Of a DNA stretch of 64,000 nucleotides, positions 28,238 to 40,559 are shown piece by piece. The notes below the pieces were generated by a model, which was given only the letters and a program-made list of their open reading frames with translations, ran no database searches and was not told where the DNA came from. Each line of letters begins with the position of its first letter. Position 1 is the stretch's first letter. This DNA is from a virus (Duplodnaviria > Caudoviricetes): IMG/VR virus record IMGVR_UViG_3300020411_000002; one strand, written 5' to 3'. The position numbers were made by a program, and so were the translations under genes.

Positions 28238-29818
28238 ATGAGAAGAAGAAAGTCTGCTACCGAGGCAGAAAGCCCACCAGCAAGAAGAACGAGAAAGAGA
28301 AGAAGCTTATCTGCTTTACGCGATAAGACAAAAACTGGTACTCGCAGAAAAGCACCTAGTACGGCAACGCCCTCAGAAGACTCTGTATCTATAGATTCTT
28401 TTGCAGCCGCATCATTAAAACAATATGGTAGCTACGTTGTAGAAGAAAGGTCTATCACTGATTTTCGTGATGGACTAAAGCCCGTTCACCGTTACATTTT
28501 ATGGGCTATGAAGAACCTTGGTTTGAACTCCAAGTCTAAATATAAAAAGTCTGCTCGTACTATTGGTGACGTTCTTGGTAAGTACCACCCTCACGGCGAC
28601 CAAGCTGCTTACGGTGCAATGGCAACTCTAGTTAACTACAAGCTATCTCCACAATTGGTAGATGGACAAGGTAACTGGGGTACTCCTGTTGATAACCAAG
28701 CTGCTATGCGTTATACAGAAGCACGACTTAGCGCAATGAGTGATATCTTTCTATTGGATAAAGGTTATCTTAAAACTGTTCCAATGGTAGACAACTTTGA
28801 TAACTCAGAGAAAGTACCTCTATACCTACCAGCGACCTTACCAATGCTTCTTGTTCTTGGTAGCTCTGGTATAGGCTTTGGTGTTAAGTCTGACAGTCCT
28901 CCGTTTAACATAGATGGAGTATACGAACTTGTTCTGCTTGGATTGAAAGCGTTCAGAGCCAACAAGAAGCTGGGTCCTAATAATTGTGCTAAGCATTTAC
29001 GTATAGATTATTCTTACGGTGGTGTTCAAGTTAGTGAAGACGAAGACGTTGCTAATCTTATCAAGTACGGTAAAGGAAGTATCAAGTTTGCACCAGAAGT
29101 AAATGCAGACTGGAAGAACAAACTGATTGAGATTAAGTCCTTCTCTCCAGGCTTTAGAAGTTCTAATGTTATTCAGAAGAAGCTTGCTAAGTTTGCAGAA
29201 ATGGATGCAGTGTCTAAAGCTGGCGACGATTCAAACGAGAAGAATCCTAAGTCAGGACCTCTTGGTGCTTACTTCTACATAAAACCTGCTCGTGGACTTT
29301 CAGAAGAAAAGTTCTTTGACTTGGCAGAGCAAGTATTCAAAGAGTTGGTATCTAGCGAGTCTTATGATTTAGGCTTTACGGTTCGTAGAGCAGATGACTC
29401 CAACATGTTTGTTAAGTCTAGCTTTGTAACATTCTTCAATAACTGGATCAAGTATCGTGTACAGTTAGAGATTGATTACCTACAAGCCTTAATAGATGAA
29501 TGCTTAACTCAGATAGAAAGAACTGAACTTCTTATCTTTGGTGTAGATAACAGACAAGTAATCATCAAGTCACTAGATAGTAAGGACCCAGATAAGTTCC
29601 TTATTACTAAGCTGAAAATTTCTGCTGAAAAAGCAAAGGCTATACTAGACCTTCAAGTTCGTAAACTTGCTAAGTTAGAAAAGCCAGCACTGCTTCAAAA
29701 GATTAAAGAGTTAAAGGCAGAGATTAGACAGTACAAGCAAGACCAAGAAGATCCAACGCCTAGAATTGCTGCTAAGACAAAAGAGCAATTCAAAGCCTAC
29801 AAGTCCCGTGTTAAATAA
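28238..29818 (+). CDS. gyrA: Type IIA DNA topoisomerase, A (cleavage) subunit lacking the C-terminal beta-pinwheel
   Basis: DGLKPVHR, KSARTIGDVLGKYHPHGD, DGQGNWG, AAMRYTEARL (catalytic Tyr); ends at 526 aa. Confidence 0.92.
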   Translation: MRRRKSATEAESPPARRTRKRRSLSALRDKTKTGTRRKAPSTATPSEDSVSIDSFAAASLKQYGSYVVEERSITDFRDGLKPVHRYILWAMKNLGLNSKSKYKKSARTIGDVLGKYHPHGDQAAYGAMATLVNYKLSPQLVDGQGNWGTPVDNQAAMRYTEARLSAMSDIFLLDKGYLKTVPMVDNFDNSEKVPLYLPATLPMLLVLGSSGIGFGVKSDSPPFNIDGVYELVLLGLKAFRANKKLGPNNCAKHLRIDYSYGGVQVSEDEDVANLIKYGKGSIKFAPEVNADWKNKLIEIKSFSPGFRSSNVIQKKLAKFAEMDAVSKAGDDSNEKNPKSGPLGAYFYIKPARGLSEEKFFDLAEQVFKELVSSESYDLGFTVRRADDSNMFVKSSFVTFFNNWIKYRVQLEIDYLQALIDECLTQIERTELLIFGVDNRQVIIKSLDSKDPDKFLITKLKISAEKAKAILDLQVRKLAKLEKPALLQKIKELKAEIRQYKQDQEDPTPRIAAKTKEQFKAYKSRVK

Positions 29819-34523: not shown

Positions 34524-35999
34524 ATGGAACTATATTCTATAGATTCAGAGTTACGATTCTTAAAAACAGTAACGAATCGAAAGATACCAAAATTAAAGCG
34601 ACTGGAATTCCTAGGACGTGTGACTGAATTGACTTTCCATCATGAGTACACGCAACAGGCTTACCGCCGTATAATGAATATGGTACAAAACAAAAACCAT
34701 CTGTTAGAATGGGGAGAGTTGCGCACAGACCAAGCGCTAGATAGAAATGCGCGGGACTTATTTGAGGACACTGATGTAAGTTCTGCTAAAGGTCCTAAGT
34801 CTATGTCTAAGCTGTTAGATGACTTGGAGATATTCAGAAAGCGCCGCATGATTTTCGAACTTGTTACTAATGTTACTGATGACTTTGACGATGACAAAGT
34901 TAGTCCTGATGATATAATTGGTAAGATAAGAACAGAAGTAGGTCGAATAGAGGCTAACTCAGTTGAAGAAGAGACTGTATGGTCTTTTGGTGTAGAAGAC
35001 AACTCTGATGATATCGTTGAACGTGCCTTGTATACTCCGTCTGAAAAACTATTGAAGACTGGTTTTACTGAGTATGATACGCGTAATGGTGGATTGCCTT
35101 CTACTGGTGTCATGATTATGGCAGCAACAACGTCAGGTGGTAAATCTGCTGTATCGATGAACTTAGAAAAGAACATTGCAGCGCTTAACGAAAACGTATC
35201 TGCCTGTAAAGCTACTCTGGAAATGAGTGAAGAGCAAGAGGCGAAACGTGTTATATCAATGGTATCTGGAATTCCTCTAAAGAAATTCAAGTTCAACAAC
35301 TTAACAGAACGTGAGGCATCCAAGGCTAAAGCTGATATGAAAGCATGGCGCGATCAGCTTAAAGCAGTAGGAAGCCGCTTTTCCTTTACGGCTGTTAAAC
35401 GAGCCAGAACCATTGACCAGCTTCTAGCTTGGTTTGTACCTTACGCATTCGATGTAATTATTATCGACTACATATCTCTATTGGAAGGTGTCGATGATGA
35501 CAACCAATGGCGAATGCTATCCGCTATTGCCCGTAAATGTAAAGTTTTCAGTTCGGAGCATAATTGCCTAATCATTCTTCTTGCTCAGTTAGATACTGAA
35601 ACAAGTAAGCTTCGATACTCTAAAGGTATTAAAGAACACGCCGACGTTATGTGGAAGTGGAACTACGCAGACGAAGAGGTTCGTGAAACGCATGTTATTA
35701 CTATCGACATTGATAAAGCGCGTGATGGTGAGTTGTTCCCTATGCCTGTATCTGAGGACTTCTCTGTAATGAGAATCACAGACCCTGATGATGAAGCTAT
35801 GGAACTATATGAAGAAATGAAAGCTAGTAGAAATACCAACAAGCGCAAACGTCAACAAATGAGTGATGATCAGGAAGACAAAGAGAAAGAACGCCGAAGC
35901 AGCCGTCGCAAGCGCAAGCGCGATTCTGATTCTGACGATACCGAACGTTCATCAGGTCGCAGACGTTCTAAATCCAATGACGATATGGTGCTAGTGTAA
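34524..35999 (+). CDS. dnaB: DnaB-like replicative helicase
   Basis: Walker A AATTSGGKS, TLEMS, IIIDYISL (Walker B), LAQL, IDKARDG; Arg/Ser/Asp-rich C-terminal tail. Confidence 0.88.
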   Translation: MELYSIDSELRFLKTVTNRKIPKLKRLEFLGRVTELTFHHEYTQQAYRRIMNMVQNKNHLLEWGELRTDQALDRNARDLFEDTDVSSAKGPKSMSKLLDDLEIFRKRRMIFELVTNVTDDFDDDKVSPDDIIGKIRTEVGRIEANSVEEETVWSFGVEDNSDDIVERALYTPSEKLLKTGFTEYDTRNGGLPSTGVMIMAATTSGGKSAVSMNLEKNIAALNENVSACKATLEMSEEQEAKRVISMVSGIPLKKFKFNNLTEREASKAKADMKAWRDQLKAVGSRFSFTAVKRARTIDQLLAWFVPYAFDVIIIDYISLLEGVDDDNQWRMLSAIARKCKVFSSEHNCLIILLAQLDTETSKLRYSKGIKEHADVMWKWNYADEEVRETHVITIDIDKARDGELFPMPVSEDFSVMRITDPDDEAMELYEEMKASRNTNKRKRQQMSDDQEDKEKERRSSRRKRKRDSDSDDTERSSGRRRSKSNDDMVLV

Positions 36000-36883
36000 T
36001 GCTTGATAATTCAGATTTAAACCCGTATGGATACTTAGGGGACGCAATTGAAGAAGTACCGATATCAGAAGTACATAGGTTAGTTCAATCCAGACCTAAT
36101 GAGTTCATGGATATGAAAAAGCCTTTTCGTGGGGTGAAAGTTGTAGACTTTAATACGATTCCTGCTGTCGGTACTGATATAGTTTTCATTGCAGAGCATA
36201 ACAAGAAAATCATTGAGGGTCTTTTAATTCCCAAACGTGAAGAGTCTAGAGCCGTAGAAATCGCTAACGAAATTGATAGAGATAGTGCGGCACGTATAGA
36301 CTTGGACTTGATTAGACAACGCATAGCAGAATCTAAGAAAGGTCACACTCGCGATACAGTTACTCCAAAGCCAAATGGTTTACTTGAAGAGGGCGAACGA
36401 GGTCGTGCAGTTGAGAACATAGTTCCAATAAGTAAAGAAGATATTGAACGTAGTTTTGACTTAACGGAAAAGACTGCAAAGCAAATAGGTGATAGGGTGG
36501 CTAAACATCTTAGCTATCTCATTAGCTTTGATAATGCTGGAAGTTATGTAGAGGCGTTCGCCCGAGACGGATTGGATATTGAATCTGAAATAAATGTAGA
36601 CGATAGCCCACTCCACTTCTTATCGCAGTTGTGTTCTATTGATTCTTTGTACTTTTATCTTAAAAAGATGCGACTCCCAAAAGCCTATAAAGATATGTAC
36701 ATGGAACGAGTTATTCACTACTACGTAGAACGAGCAGCGAAAGACTCGGACAATGCTAGAACCAGTGAGCGTTTGCGCAGACTAAACAACGTCCAAAGCG
36801 CAGCAGGTCAAGTCAAAGAAGACGACAACAAGAATGCTCACGGCTTAGTTAGATCTAGACAAACAAACAGGACTCACTATTAG
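35999..36883 (+). CDS. Hypothetical protein directly upstream of the terminase (small-terminase position)
   Basis: 294 aa; TAATG overlap with the helicase; function from position only. Confidence 0.7.
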   Translation: MLDNSDLNPYGYLGDAIEEVPISEVHRLVQSRPNEFMDMKKPFRGVKVVDFNTIPAVGTDIVFIAEHNKKIIEGLLIPKREESRAVEIANEIDRDSAARIDLDLIRQRIAESKKGHTRDTVTPKPNGLLEEGERGRAVENIVPISKEDIERSFDLTEKTAKQIGDRVAKHLSYLISFDNAGSYVEAFARDGLDIESEINVDDSPLHFLSQLCSIDSLYFYLKKMRLPKAYKDMYMERVIHYYVERAAKDSDNARTSERLRRLNNVQSAAGQVKEDDNKNAHGLVRSRQTNRTHY

Positions 36884-39800
36884 AAGAATTCGCAAGTCTT
36901 CCAGTGGAAAAGATAAAGTAGATGTTAAGACTCCCGATCAACCTAAAAAGCGCAGACTCAAACGAAGAAAGCGCACAGAGGAAGTTCAGGAAATCAAAAC
37001 ATTTGAAGTCGCTCCACCTAGAGACAACTACAACCCTCTAGCTGAATTGCTAAATATGGGTGAAGCTGATGATTCAGAATCAGAAGATTTATCTTTCCTC
37101 GACGAAAAAGAGCAGGAGTATAACCCTCTAGATGACGGTGAAGCCATAGACGTAATAGCTATGGTGGATGAAGTAATAGAGAACGATACTCTTGTTGCTC
37201 CTGACTTACGACTCGATGACTCTAGTTGTCCCGAAGCTCCAAACGTTTTTGATTGGATGATTAGTGACAAGTTTTTAGGATGTGAACCTCCGTACTTAGA
37301 ACAAGCACTTATCTGTATACAGTTATTCGCTGAGTATTGTGTAGCCAAAGGAAGTTACATATATACAGACAAGGGCTTGCAGACAATAGAAGATGCACTT
37401 GGCAATCCTGATAAGAAAGGAATGTATGAATGTAGCTTTTCTACAGTCGGTCTGTCGGGTATAAAAGAAGCTACATACGGTGGTATGACTTCTAAACGTA
37501 GAAAGTGTTTAAAAGTATCTTATGCTAATGGTAAAAGTGTTATTGTAACACCTGAGCATAAAATACTTAAACTCAATAAAAACTATTCTTTCAGTTGGGT
37601 GGAAGCTAGACACTTGGATGTAGGGGATGTCGGTGTATCTAAATTAGGTCAGAATTTATTTCCTGTAAACGCATACCGATTAGTATTTGAAGACGTAGAA
37701 CCTTCAAGACTCTATACGCATACTTCTGGACAAGTAGTAGACAATAACAATTCAGGTAAAGATTTTAGTATACCTGAATTAATGACTAATGAGCTTGCTA
37801 GGCTTATAGGGTACTTGATAAGTGATGGTTCAGTTGCTAGACAAGGCAATTCTATAGACTTTACCTCCTTGACAGATTCAGGTTTAGCAGACGATTTTGT
37901 TTACTGCATTAAATCTGTTTTTGGATTAGATTGTAAAACAACTACAGACAATTGGAAACCTAACAGTACCCGTCCTTATTCTTACGTTCAAGTTCATAGT
38001 AGAAAACTAGTTAGATTTTTTAATAGCTTAGGTGTAAGTGGGCTTTGCTACGATAAAACAATTCCTAAGTGCATTTTAGAATCTACGCGAGAACACGTTA
38101 TTGAATGTTTACGTGCTATAATGGATTGCGACGGCTGGACAGACTATAAAGTAGGTATAGTTCTTTCTAGTCAAAAAGCTGTAAAACAAATGCAACTTCT
38201 ATTCGATAACTTAGGGTTATACGGCAAGTATAGGGAATATGTAGATACAGGAAGTGCTGTTTCTCATAGAGAACATGACGATCCTAAAAATCTTAGAGCA
38301 GAATGGGTTCTTAGGTCTTGTCCAACACAGTTCGCTTCAATTATTGGAACGCGAAACAATTTACGAAAAGATAAGTTGTTTTCCAAGACTGCTAAAGACA
38401 CATCTTTTTCCGTATCAGGTAATGGAAACTATAAACCTGGAGTAGTACCTTTTGGTAGAGAACTCTATGCATATTCAAGTACTTTGCGAGATTCTTATCA
38501 TGATAAAGGTTTGTCTTACATTAAGTATGGACGTAGAGATTCTTTTATCGTATCAAATACCTTGTCTGACCCAGACTTTGTAGATTTTTGGAATAGAAAA
38601 GATAATCGTATTTTAAGCCGACTTGAAAAGCTAGACTCCTCTAATCTTTCTTTTTCAAGAATTGTTTCTGTAGAAGATGCAGGCATACATGAGGTTTACG
38701 ATATAACTGTTCCAGATGGTGAGAACTTTCAATGTGATGGAATGATAGTTCATAATTGTCCTCGATGCAGCGATACTGAATGGATGCACATTGATAACCA
38801 TGAACCACAAGAAGGTCTTGGTGCTATCGTTGAAAAAGTGCAAATGCTTAAATTCGGTAAATGTCCTAAGTGTAAAGCAGGTCGTGCGGAAATGATACGT
38901 AGCGGTGAGCTTAACTTCTACAATGAACTAGCTGTACTAGCTGGACAGCGTAGTGGTAAGAGTATCGTTACTGCAATGGCATCAACCTATATAACCCATC
39001 GCATTCTCAAAATGCAAAAGCCAACTGAAATATTCAGAGTTGGTAAGGGGCAAATCTTACATGCTACATTCGTGGCATTGACACAGGGTCAGGCGAAAGA
39101 AACGCTTTGGGACCCTTTTCTTGGTTATATCAACAACAGTCCTTGGTTCAAGAAATATCATGCACTAATGAAATTCTATGAGCGTAAGTATCATACCGAA
39201 TTCGTGCGTGTCAAGGATATGTTCATTCACTATAAACATCGTAACTTGATTCTGTATCCTGCAGGTCCTGATAAACGTAAGCTTCGTGGTAGAACACGGG
39301 TTATTGGTGCGATAGATGAAATCGGTTGGTTCGATAACAACAAAGCAAGTAACAAGATAACGGTAGATGCTAACGGTGTGTATGAGGCTCTTGTGCGTTC
39401 ACTTGGTACTATTCGTGCATCGGAAGACAGGCTTGTTGACATTGGATACGACCAAGCACTTACTGCATATATGCTAAACATCAGTTCACCGTCTAGTATA
39501 CGTGATAAGATTTGTGAGCTAGTAAGAACGTCTATTGGTTCTAGAAAAACATTCGGTCTTCATGCTCCAACGTGGAAAATGAACCCGACTATATCTAGAA
39601 ACAGTGGATTCATTGTTGAAGAATATCGCAAAGACCCAATTACAGCCCAGCGAGACTATGGTGCTGATCCACCTCTTAGTGCTAACGCATTTATCAATAA
39701 CAAATTGCTGGTGGAAGAGGCATTCAGTAAAACGAATCGCAACTTCATTAAGTACAAGCAAGACTTTATTGTTGTTGGTAAAGAGAAGTACAGATACGGT

Positions 39801-40559
39801 GTCGTAGATAAAGTTAAGCCTGGGTCAAGCTATAGTATAATGGCACTCGATGCTGGATATACAAACAACAGCTTCTCAATGGTTGTTGGTTCTTTCAACT
39901 CGCAAGGCATACCTACTATCGAAGTTGTGTGTGAGATTATTCCTAGACCGGGAATTCCATTACACTATACAATGATTTACGAAGAAGTTATGAAGCCTAT
40001 CATTGAGGCGCGTAACGTTAGAATAGTACTTGCAGATAGATGGAACAGCTTAAAGCTTTTACATGATATTCAATTAGACTTCCAAGACGTTGATATGATT
40101 ATCAAGCAGTACAGCTTGAAGTATCAAGACTTCTGGGCAGTTAAAACAGGTCTAGAGCAATTCCAATTAATTATTCCAGCTATGAACAAAGGTTCAGAAT
40201 TGGATAAGTTGTTGCGTGACCCTCTAGATGAATATCCATACTGCTTCGACGGAAGACCTATAGAACACCTTGCATTGCAGATACTAACTGTTCAAGATAG
40301 TGGTAGAACTGTATTGAAAGGCGAAGGCGATCTAACTGACGATTCATTCAGAGCGCTAAGTTTGTTCTATTGGGGAATTCGAGACCCAGAGTATTCGGAA
40401 ATAATCTTACAGCCAATGAAAGAGTCTGAGAAACCCAAGCTGCCTATCGGAATAGCGCTACTTGGCTCTAAGACAAATTCAAGTGGTGTATCTTCACAAG
40501 CCAAACACTACAGCAGCGGTAATGGCGGCAACATTGGTCTAACTCAACGGAGAAAATAA
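36879..40559 (+). CDS. terL: Terminase large subunit (intein-containing); start uncertain (ATT 36879 vs TTG 37047)
   Basis: Walker A LAGQRSGKS, Walker B IGAIDEIGW, nuclease ALDAG and GDLTDD; frame open upstream to the TAG at 36846-36848. Confidence 0.85.
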   Translation: MRRIRKSSSGKDKVDVKTPDQPKKRRLKRRKRTEEVQEIKTFEVAPPRDNYNPLAELLNMGEADDSESEDLSFLDEKEQEYNPLDDGEAIDVIAMVDEVIENDTLVAPDLRLDDSSCPEAPNVFDWMISDKFLGCEPPYLEQALICIQLFAEYCVAKGSYIYTDKGLQTIEDALGNPDKKGMYECSFSTVGLSGIKEATYGGMTSKRRKCLKVSYANGKSVIVTPEHKILKLNKNYSFSWVEARHLDVGDVGVSKLGQNLFPVNAYRLVFEDVEPSRLYTHTSGQVVDNNNSGKDFSIPELMTNELARLIGYLISDGSVARQGNSIDFTSLTDSGLADDFVYCIKSVFGLDCKTTTDNWKPNSTRPYSYVQVHSRKLVRFFNSLGVSGLCYDKTIPKCILESTREHVIECLRAIMDCDGWTDYKVGIVLSSQKAVKQMQLLFDNLGLYGKYREYVDTGSAVSHREHDDPKNLRAEWVLRSCPTQFASIIGTRNNLRKDKLFSKTAKDTSFSVSGNGNYKPGVVPFGRELYAYSSTLRDSYHDKGLSYIKYGRRDSFIVSNTLSDPDFVDFWNRKDNRILSRLEKLDSSNLSFSRIVSVEDAGIHEVYDITVPDGENFQCDGMIVHNCPRCSDTEWMHIDNHEPQEGLGAIVEKVQMLKFGKCPKCKAGRAEMIRSGELNFYNELAVLAGQRSGKSIVTAMASTYITHRILKMQKPTEIFRVGKGQILHATFVALTQGQAKETLWDPFLGYINNSPWFKKYHALMKFYERKYHTEFVRVKDMFIHYKHRNLILYPAGPDKRKLRGRTRVIGAIDEIGWFDNNKASNKITVDANGVYEALVRSLGTIRASEDRLVDIGYDQALTAYMLNISSPSSIRDKICELVRTSIGSRKTFGLHAPTWKMNPTISRNSGFIVEEYRKDPITAQRDYGADPPLSANAFINNKLLVEEAFSKTNRNFIKYKQDFIVVGKEKYRYGVVDKVKPGSSYSIMALDAGYTNNSFSMVVGSFNSQGIPTIEVVCEIIPRPGIPLHYTMIYEEVMKPIIEARNVRIVLADRWNSLKLLHDIQLDFQDVDMIIKQYSLKYQDFWAVKTGLEQFQLIIPAMNKGSELDKLLRDPLDEYPYCFDGRPIEHLALQILTVQDSGRTVLKGEGDLTDDSFRALSLFYWGIRDPEYSEIILQPMKESEKPKLPIGIALLGSKTNSSGVSSQAKHYSSGNGGNIGLTQRRK
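37338..38756 (+). mobile_element. Intein with LAGLIDADG homing endonuclease (473 aa)
   Basis: N-terminal C(VAKGSYI), LIGYLISDGS and LRAIMDCDGW motifs, C-terminal VYDITV...IVHN followed by +1 Cys. Confidence 0.93.

Follow-up and report, generated by a model that had tools for sequence, protein, structure and literature searches.

A probable ATT start codon for the large terminase gene in a clade of marine jumbo phages

AUU start codons are experimentally established in the genes infC, pcnB and cvfC1, where they act at ~1–2% to ~15% of the level of AUG (10.1101/063800; PMC3592434; PMC13009471). Measured strengths include: (i) ~1–2% of AUG in a survey of all 64 codons (10.1101/063800), (ii) 6–8-fold below AUG in a standard Shine-Dalgarno (SD) context (PMC3592434), and (iii) ~10% of AUG for the non-canonical starts of Staphylococcus aureus, among which cvfC1 (AUU) and ccpN/infC (AUA) are mapped by retapamulin ribosome profiling (PMC13009471). 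The infC and pcnB genes of Escherichia coli carry AUU where orthologues or mutants use AUG, are directed by an SD and have low, limited expression (PMC3592434; 10.1101/063800). Only 3 nt separate infC from the cistron before it, and re-initiation and de novo initiation add up to its translation; in overlapping or closely spaced cistrons, re-initiation accounts for about half of the translation of the second cistron (PMC3592434). The gene considered here is terL, which encodes the large terminase, in a 64,000-nt stretch of the phage record IMGVR_UViG_3300020411_000002 (the window, meaning this whole stretch). In the clade to which this phage belongs, terL probably starts at the rare and weak start codon ATT (position 36879), an exception of a known kind. 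No paper on ATT-started terminases was found in a literature search.

The terL frame is open from 36849, directly after an in-frame TAG (36846–36848), and holds no ATG, GTG or TTG in the 66 codons before TTG 37047; the next ATG is at 37056. Among real genes of the window, only terL has a run of at least 30 open codons ahead of its first canonical start; the sole other match is an antisense open reading frame (ORF). A preliminary description of the window had given the coordinates of this open frame, and all are confirmed, as is its observation that AGGA precedes ATT 36879 by 6 nt and that this ATT overlaps the stop of the upstream gene (ATTAG). The elements of the junction are as follows.

35999–36883, plus strand: upstream gene (294 residues), conserved immediately before terL throughout the phage group
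36846–36848, plus strand: TAG that closes the terL frame upstream
36869–36872, plus strand: SD-like AGGA, 6 nt before ATT and invariant in the clade
36879–36881, plus strand: ATT, proposed start codon of terL, matched by ATG at the homologous position in every sister clade
36881–36883, plus strand: TAG stop of the upstream gene, with one base in common with ATT (string ATTAG); the genes overlap by 5 nt
36882–36974, plus strand: basic N-terminal tail of TerL, codons 2–32 (RRIRKSS...KKRRLKRRKR)
37035–37052, plus strand: family-wide PLxELL motif, of which TTG 37047–37049 is the invariant Leu57
37056–37058, plus strand: ATG used as start by public gene calls (1167-residue and 694-residue products), with no SD-like motif upstream

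ATT 36879 is fixed in the clade and is homologous to an ATG elsewhere in the phage group. The TerL cluster of the window (at least 90% identity) comprises 17 sequence variants, found on considerably more than 100 contigs (Tara, JGI, ENA and Logan), and the terL loci compared are the window and a further 11 (L003 to L012 and L029) taken from different samples, which amount to 12 assemblies and nine haplotypes. ATT is invariant in 12 of 12 assemblies and in all nine haplotypes, which come from different samples and projects; sequence differences do occur 1–5 nt before it (ctcact or ctaaat). The preliminary description had left room for a point mutation or a sequencing error, and a single G-to-T change would be enough to give ATT. 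The independent assemblies, however, show ATT and not ATG at 36879, which refutes a sequencing or assembly error and a private mutation alike. An equally negligible probability attaches to read-through of TAG 36846 from a 4-codon mini-ORF (ATG CTC ACG GCT TAG, 36834–36848) that immediately precedes the open stretch in the terL frame. ATG 36834 shares the frame of terL, and a single TAG stands between the two, but this ATG is ACG in three haplotypes (L003, L007 and L008), and the mini-ORF is therefore incidental; the window, moreover, keeps to the standard stop codons and has no tRNA genes.

At the homologous position, ATG stands in Phage NCTB, in another four marine clades (P0003–P0006) and in a Dickeya/Erwinia-like clade. 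The terL ATG of NCTB (position 2890 of its locus, L001) overlaps the upstream stop and gives MKRIRKKSKE. The two genes align codon for codon (ATT-AGA-AGA-ATT-CGC-AAG in the window and ATG-AAA-CGC-ATT-CGT-AAA in NCTB), and the tblastn match of the window to NCTB begins already inside the N-terminal extension that ATT would add. The N-termini of the other relatives are likewise basic (MKRVKRRK, MRKVRTKK, MKLKNRSRK, MKLRKGSS or MAKKPK), and a metagenomic gene call of the NCTB cluster (P0002) has the long form of TerL. The overlap or abutment of start and upstream stop is also kept, as ATTAG in the window, mostly as ATGA in the relatives and as TAATG in NCTB. Alignment with related phages, a check that the preliminary description had named, thus finds a separate gene with ATG at the equivalent of 36879 rather than a fused ORF, and the homologues begin at this ATG and not at the equivalent of 37047. 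The comparison favours the proposal that ATT 36879 is a start giving (M)RRIRKSS. With ATG in every outgroup, ATT is the derived state, and it marks one well-separated lineage, the range between 67% and 90% identity being empty of TerL clusters; there is, by the same token, no intermediate lineage to date the ATG-to-ATT change. A second ATT (36888) was rejected as the start, being ATC in several haplotypes and unaligned with the ATG of the relatives.

Variation within the clade in 36879–37046, read in the terL frame, consists of 13 synonymous and 10 non-synonymous changes where 22% synonymous is expected (P=4e-4). The signal is strongest right after ATT, with 11 synonymous versus 4 non-synonymous changes in codons 1–32 (P=4e-5). 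The identical sites counted in the other two frames, as a control for mutation spectrum and relatedness, give 3 versus 20 and 5 versus 18. The amino-acid changes in the extension are conservative (K/R, D/E, I/V and V/A) and keep its basic character, and the PLAELLNMG segment is invariant within the clade. The upstream gene, by comparison, has 30 synonymous and 6 non-synonymous changes over its final 300 nt when these are counted in its own frame. As ATT is fixed in all haplotypes, the substitutions in the extension accumulated after the ATG was lost; they thus indicate continued protein-level selection on the tail in the absence of a canonical start. Judged from this pattern of substitution, the 56 codons downstream of ATT are conserved as coding sequence.

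The TerL family points in the same direction. A net charge of at least +4 in the first 25 residues is found in 78 of the 119 family members retrieved, most of which start MAKK, MKKK or MKRI, and most of the 119 also have a hydrophobic-x-x-LL motif after the basic N-terminus. Leu57 of PLxELL, encoded in the window by TTG 37047, is invariant in 8 of 8 sequences of an alignment (A3) of the window clade, five other marine clades and one Dickeya phage; TTG 37047 is therefore an internal codon and no start. Many TerL N-termini (P0002–P0142) run from a basic tail (MAKKPK, MKKK or MKRIRK) through the hydrophobic-x-x-LL motif to an acidic stretch with DLxFL. This architecture suggests a conserved module for docking or DNA binding ahead of the zinc-ribbon and ATPase.

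These results bear on a rival explanation in which translation starts only downstream, at ATG 37056 (or TTG 37047), the ancestral ATG having decayed to ATT, the basic tail being lost and 36879–37046 remaining as an untranslated spacer that has not yet gained a stop. The two codons are the first canonical starts in the frame, every public gene call uses ATG 37056, this ATG is fixed in the clade, and the chance of meeting no stop after ~23 substitutions is still ~0.3. A spacer, however, would not be expected to show a synonymous excess that is specific to the terL frame and begins right after ATT, nor conservative changes that preserve a basic tail of the kind most family members keep. The downstream start would also split the invariant PLxELL motif and leave 165 nt between the genes non-coding, and it would lack an SD, as no SD-like motif comparable to that of ATT precedes either 37047 or 37056. 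The explanation is thus improbable.

By contrast, the context of ATT 36879 is that of an ordinary gene start. AGGA, GGAG or GAGG lies 4–9 nt upstream of 27 of the 63 plus-strand gene starts in the window (43%), compared with 2.4% of arbitrary positions and 1.8% of ATT triplets, and AGGA at -6, as found before ATT, is the commonest ribosome-binding context in the genome. The 101 nt around ATT are less structured than 194 of 200 shuffles (z=+1.77), a weak fold of the kind that an accessible initiation region should have. Neighbouring genes in the window usually join by stop/start overlap (ten of -4 and three of -1).

A further rival is a programmed +1 frameshift at the end of the upstream gene, at UAU-UAG-A or elsewhere in 36849–36883, that fuses the 294-residue protein to TerL with no independent initiation of terL. 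Its appeal is that the overlap of the two frames has the geometry suited to a +1 shift, that the terL frame is without a canonical start, and that, as in the prfB site, an A-site stop is combined with an SD-like element upstream, here AGGA. The position first suggested for such a shift (GGC TTA G, 36842–36848) lies before the in-frame TAG ends and finds no support; the sole stretch in which a shift could occur (36849–36883) has no re-pairing-competent site, and its variation follows the frame of the upstream gene. In particular, tRNA-Tyr on UAU cannot re-pair on AUU. The SD of the prfB site is spaced 3 nt from the P-site codon, whereas AGGA here is 5 nt away, and its 6-nt distance to ATT suits initiation. 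The next codon in the +1 frame, AGA, is the commonest Arg codon in the window and would cause no hungry-codon pause, while no downstream structure that could act as a stimulator appears in the fold of the 101 nt around ATT. All sister clades have two separate genes, terL with ATG, and no fused protein occurs among the family hits of 679–2163 residues. No terL-frame selection is apparent from the few variants in the 30 nt preceding ATT (1 synonymous versus 3 non-synonymous), a count too small to decide. The locus thus resembles prfB-type frameshifting in the A-site stop, the upstream SD-like element and the +1 relation of the frames, but it differs in lacking a slippery P-site codon, in SD spacing and in the absence of a fused form conserved in relatives. 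The frameshift is given little credence, slightly less even than the downstream-only start.

Several points weigh against initiation at ATT. AUU is a poor start, and the SD is only 4 nt long, not extended as with the non-canonical starts of S. aureus. The synonymous excess consists of only 23 changes among related haplotypes and is carried by codons 1–32; codons 33–56 alone show 2 synonymous versus 6 non-synonymous changes, although the PLxELL part within them is invariant. The junction is remodelled in the ATT clade, and the correspondence of ATT to ATG accordingly rests on the alignment of the TerL side. Finally, the in-frame ATG 37056, fixed in the clade, could supply a shorter TerL.

This last point leads to an explanation with two isoforms, in which a minority of full-length, basic-tailed TerL is made from ATT and a tail-less TerL from ATG 37056, the ratio being set by ATT. 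In its favour, each of the two codons is fixed in the clade; the Met at 37056 is clade-specific (sister clades have L, T or D there), and selection on the tail requires that a long form exist in any case. The short form, on the other hand, would miss half of the invariant PLxELL and would be started with no SD-like motif in front of it, and the P0004 clade has an internal Met one residue away yet retains a normal ATG start. Two isoforms are unlikely, though ATG 37056 could be a minor internal start. A bolder version, somewhat less likely again, treats ATT as a regulatory valve: full-length TerL would come only from ribosomes that finish the upstream protein, or at lowered fidelity late in infection, with the tail-less form supplied by ATG 37056, and the phage would thereby tune the ratio of 'addressed' to 'unaddressed' terminase in a clade-wide system of basic-tailed DNA enzymes. 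Its radical variant is an obligate +1 fusion that joins the upstream protein to TerL.

The favoured reading remains that terL starts at ATT 36879 by SD-directed AUU initiation that is coupled to termination of the upstream gene and yields little TerL; this is likely, with the mechanism drawn from established knowledge. De novo initiation at ATT would be positioned by the AGGA 6 nt upstream in unstructured mRNA. Ribosomes that terminate on the upstream gene at the overlapping TAG may also re-initiate at ATT, and both routes would contribute. The initiator tRNA would read AUU with a third-position mismatch, and the product would begin with the basic tail and PLxELL, as TerL does throughout the family. 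ATT would set TerL output low and make it dependent on translation of the upstream gene. As AUU supports ~1–15% of the initiation of AUG in the bacteria tested, which may not be the value in the host of this phage, such a low and upstream-dependent output is the most likely outcome; it is plausible for a catalytic packaging enzyme. The arrangement suggests that keeping TerL scarce, and linking its amount to the upstream gene, is deliberate.

On sequence features, terL would work like infC, pcnB and cvfC1: the locus has all the sequence-level marks of an AUU-started gene and calls for no new mechanism. The likeness to infC and pcnB lies in an AUU that replaces the AUG of orthologues and in an SD that directs it, and that to infC in particular in a start placed at the end of the preceding cistron. 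Unlike these host regulators, terL is a phage late gene for a packaging ATPase-nuclease; its start codon and the stop of the upstream gene overlap (ATTAG), and there is no evident IF3 autoregulatory logic. Similarly to cvfC1 and ccpN/infC of S. aureus, the non-canonical start of terL is conserved across relatives. The S. aureus sites, however, have an extended SD, whereas terL has a plain 4-nt AGGA and its non-canonical codon is limited to one clade. NCTB and other phages of its group share the gene order, the TerL family, the basic N-terminus with PLxELL and, in some members, inteins (PMC7412058), but start terL at ATG. The ATT clade would thus be a clean, population-level natural example of a derived AUU start fixed on an essential phage late gene.

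A start at ATT means that public annotations cut ~59 residues from TerL. The record of the window itself and dozens of metagenomic gene calls place the start at ATG 37056, which would be wrong by 59 residues, and the residues lost are the hallmark basic tail and PLxELL motif of the family. Gene callers limited to ATG, GTG and TTG truncate such genes systematically. The start is also misplaced in the NCTB record (BN7874_094), where terL begins at L001:3127 although the real ATG is at L001:2890 (gene L001:2890–5163), 79 codons earlier; the apparent 236-nt gap in that record is coding sequence.

The source phage is a ~240-kb marine jumbo phage of the 'Lupandier' group, which includes PaBG, Lu11, NCTB and phages of Dickeya and Erwinia (PMC7412058), and its clade is abundant and globally distributed in the sea. 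The closest deposited phage is NCTB (LT598654.1), whose TerL, SBV38263.1, is ~65% identical. Megablast of the window against phages gave no match, nor did a scan of viral contigs with window-specific peptide patterns; later profile-based scans added few loci. The terL product matches the full-length profile phrog_17415 at E=1e-248. This family (phrog_17415/PF27249) is the large terminase of the Lupandier group, and synteny with the dnaB and portal genes is present, the order common to the group being dnaB, a gene of ~290 residues, terL and, later, the portal gene. The window has a GC content of 39%. An alternative genetic code is ruled out, as the window is densely coding under table 11 with standard stop codons, uses all three of them (32 TAA, 22 TGA and 10 TAG) and has no tRNA genes in its 64 kb.

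Other DNA enzymes of the window also carry charged tails. The topoisomerase II subunit (28238–29818) starts MRRRKS...RRTRKRR, with a net charge of +8 over residues 1–25, which bears out the likeness to TerL pointed out in the preliminary description. The DnaB helicase (34524–35999) ends in a long C-terminal tail of mixed K/R and D/E that is also found in NCTB. The basic topoisomerase N-terminus and the charged DnaB tail fit a basic-tail theme of this genome.

The upstream protein ends ~6 residues later in the ATT clade than in all sister clades (...VRSRQTNRTHY compared with ...IRQRR or ...VVRRK, alignment A4). The extra C-terminal residues QTNRTH/KY (window 36851–36883, compared with relatives) occur only in this clade, and the added DNA holds the AGGA before ATT and a CAAACAAACA repeat. 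These ~6 extra codons, the AGGA included, indicate that the junction was remodelled in this lineage. The 294-residue protein has no Pfam match, matches only a family of unknown function in PHROGs, and found nothing below E=0.86 in a profile search of the PDB. An ankyrin/OspC assignment was set aside as noise (atlas feature matches with a score of 0.89 and few features in common). The C-terminal half of the protein is helical, and its AlphaFold model (pLDDT 51) is too poor for a fold search.

TerL itself is interrupted by an intein. Started at ATT 36879, the gene would encode a 1226-residue precursor, which becomes 753 residues once the intein is spliced out, with the following parts.

36879–37337, plus strand: TerL N-extein as re-annotated, 153 residues
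37338–38756, plus strand: intein, 473 residues, with Hint and LAGLIDADG domains
38757–40559, plus strand: TerL C-extein (CxxC...CxxC, Walker A and nuclease) and stop codon

Genomes with and without the intein occur in a single clade of at least 95% identity. The intein-less genomes (L003 and L006 to L012) have the exact junction LFAEY|CP(K/R)CSD, and P0006 (L020/L021), a clade further removed, carries an intein at this TerL site. On sequence comparison, this distribution looks like active homing or precise loss.

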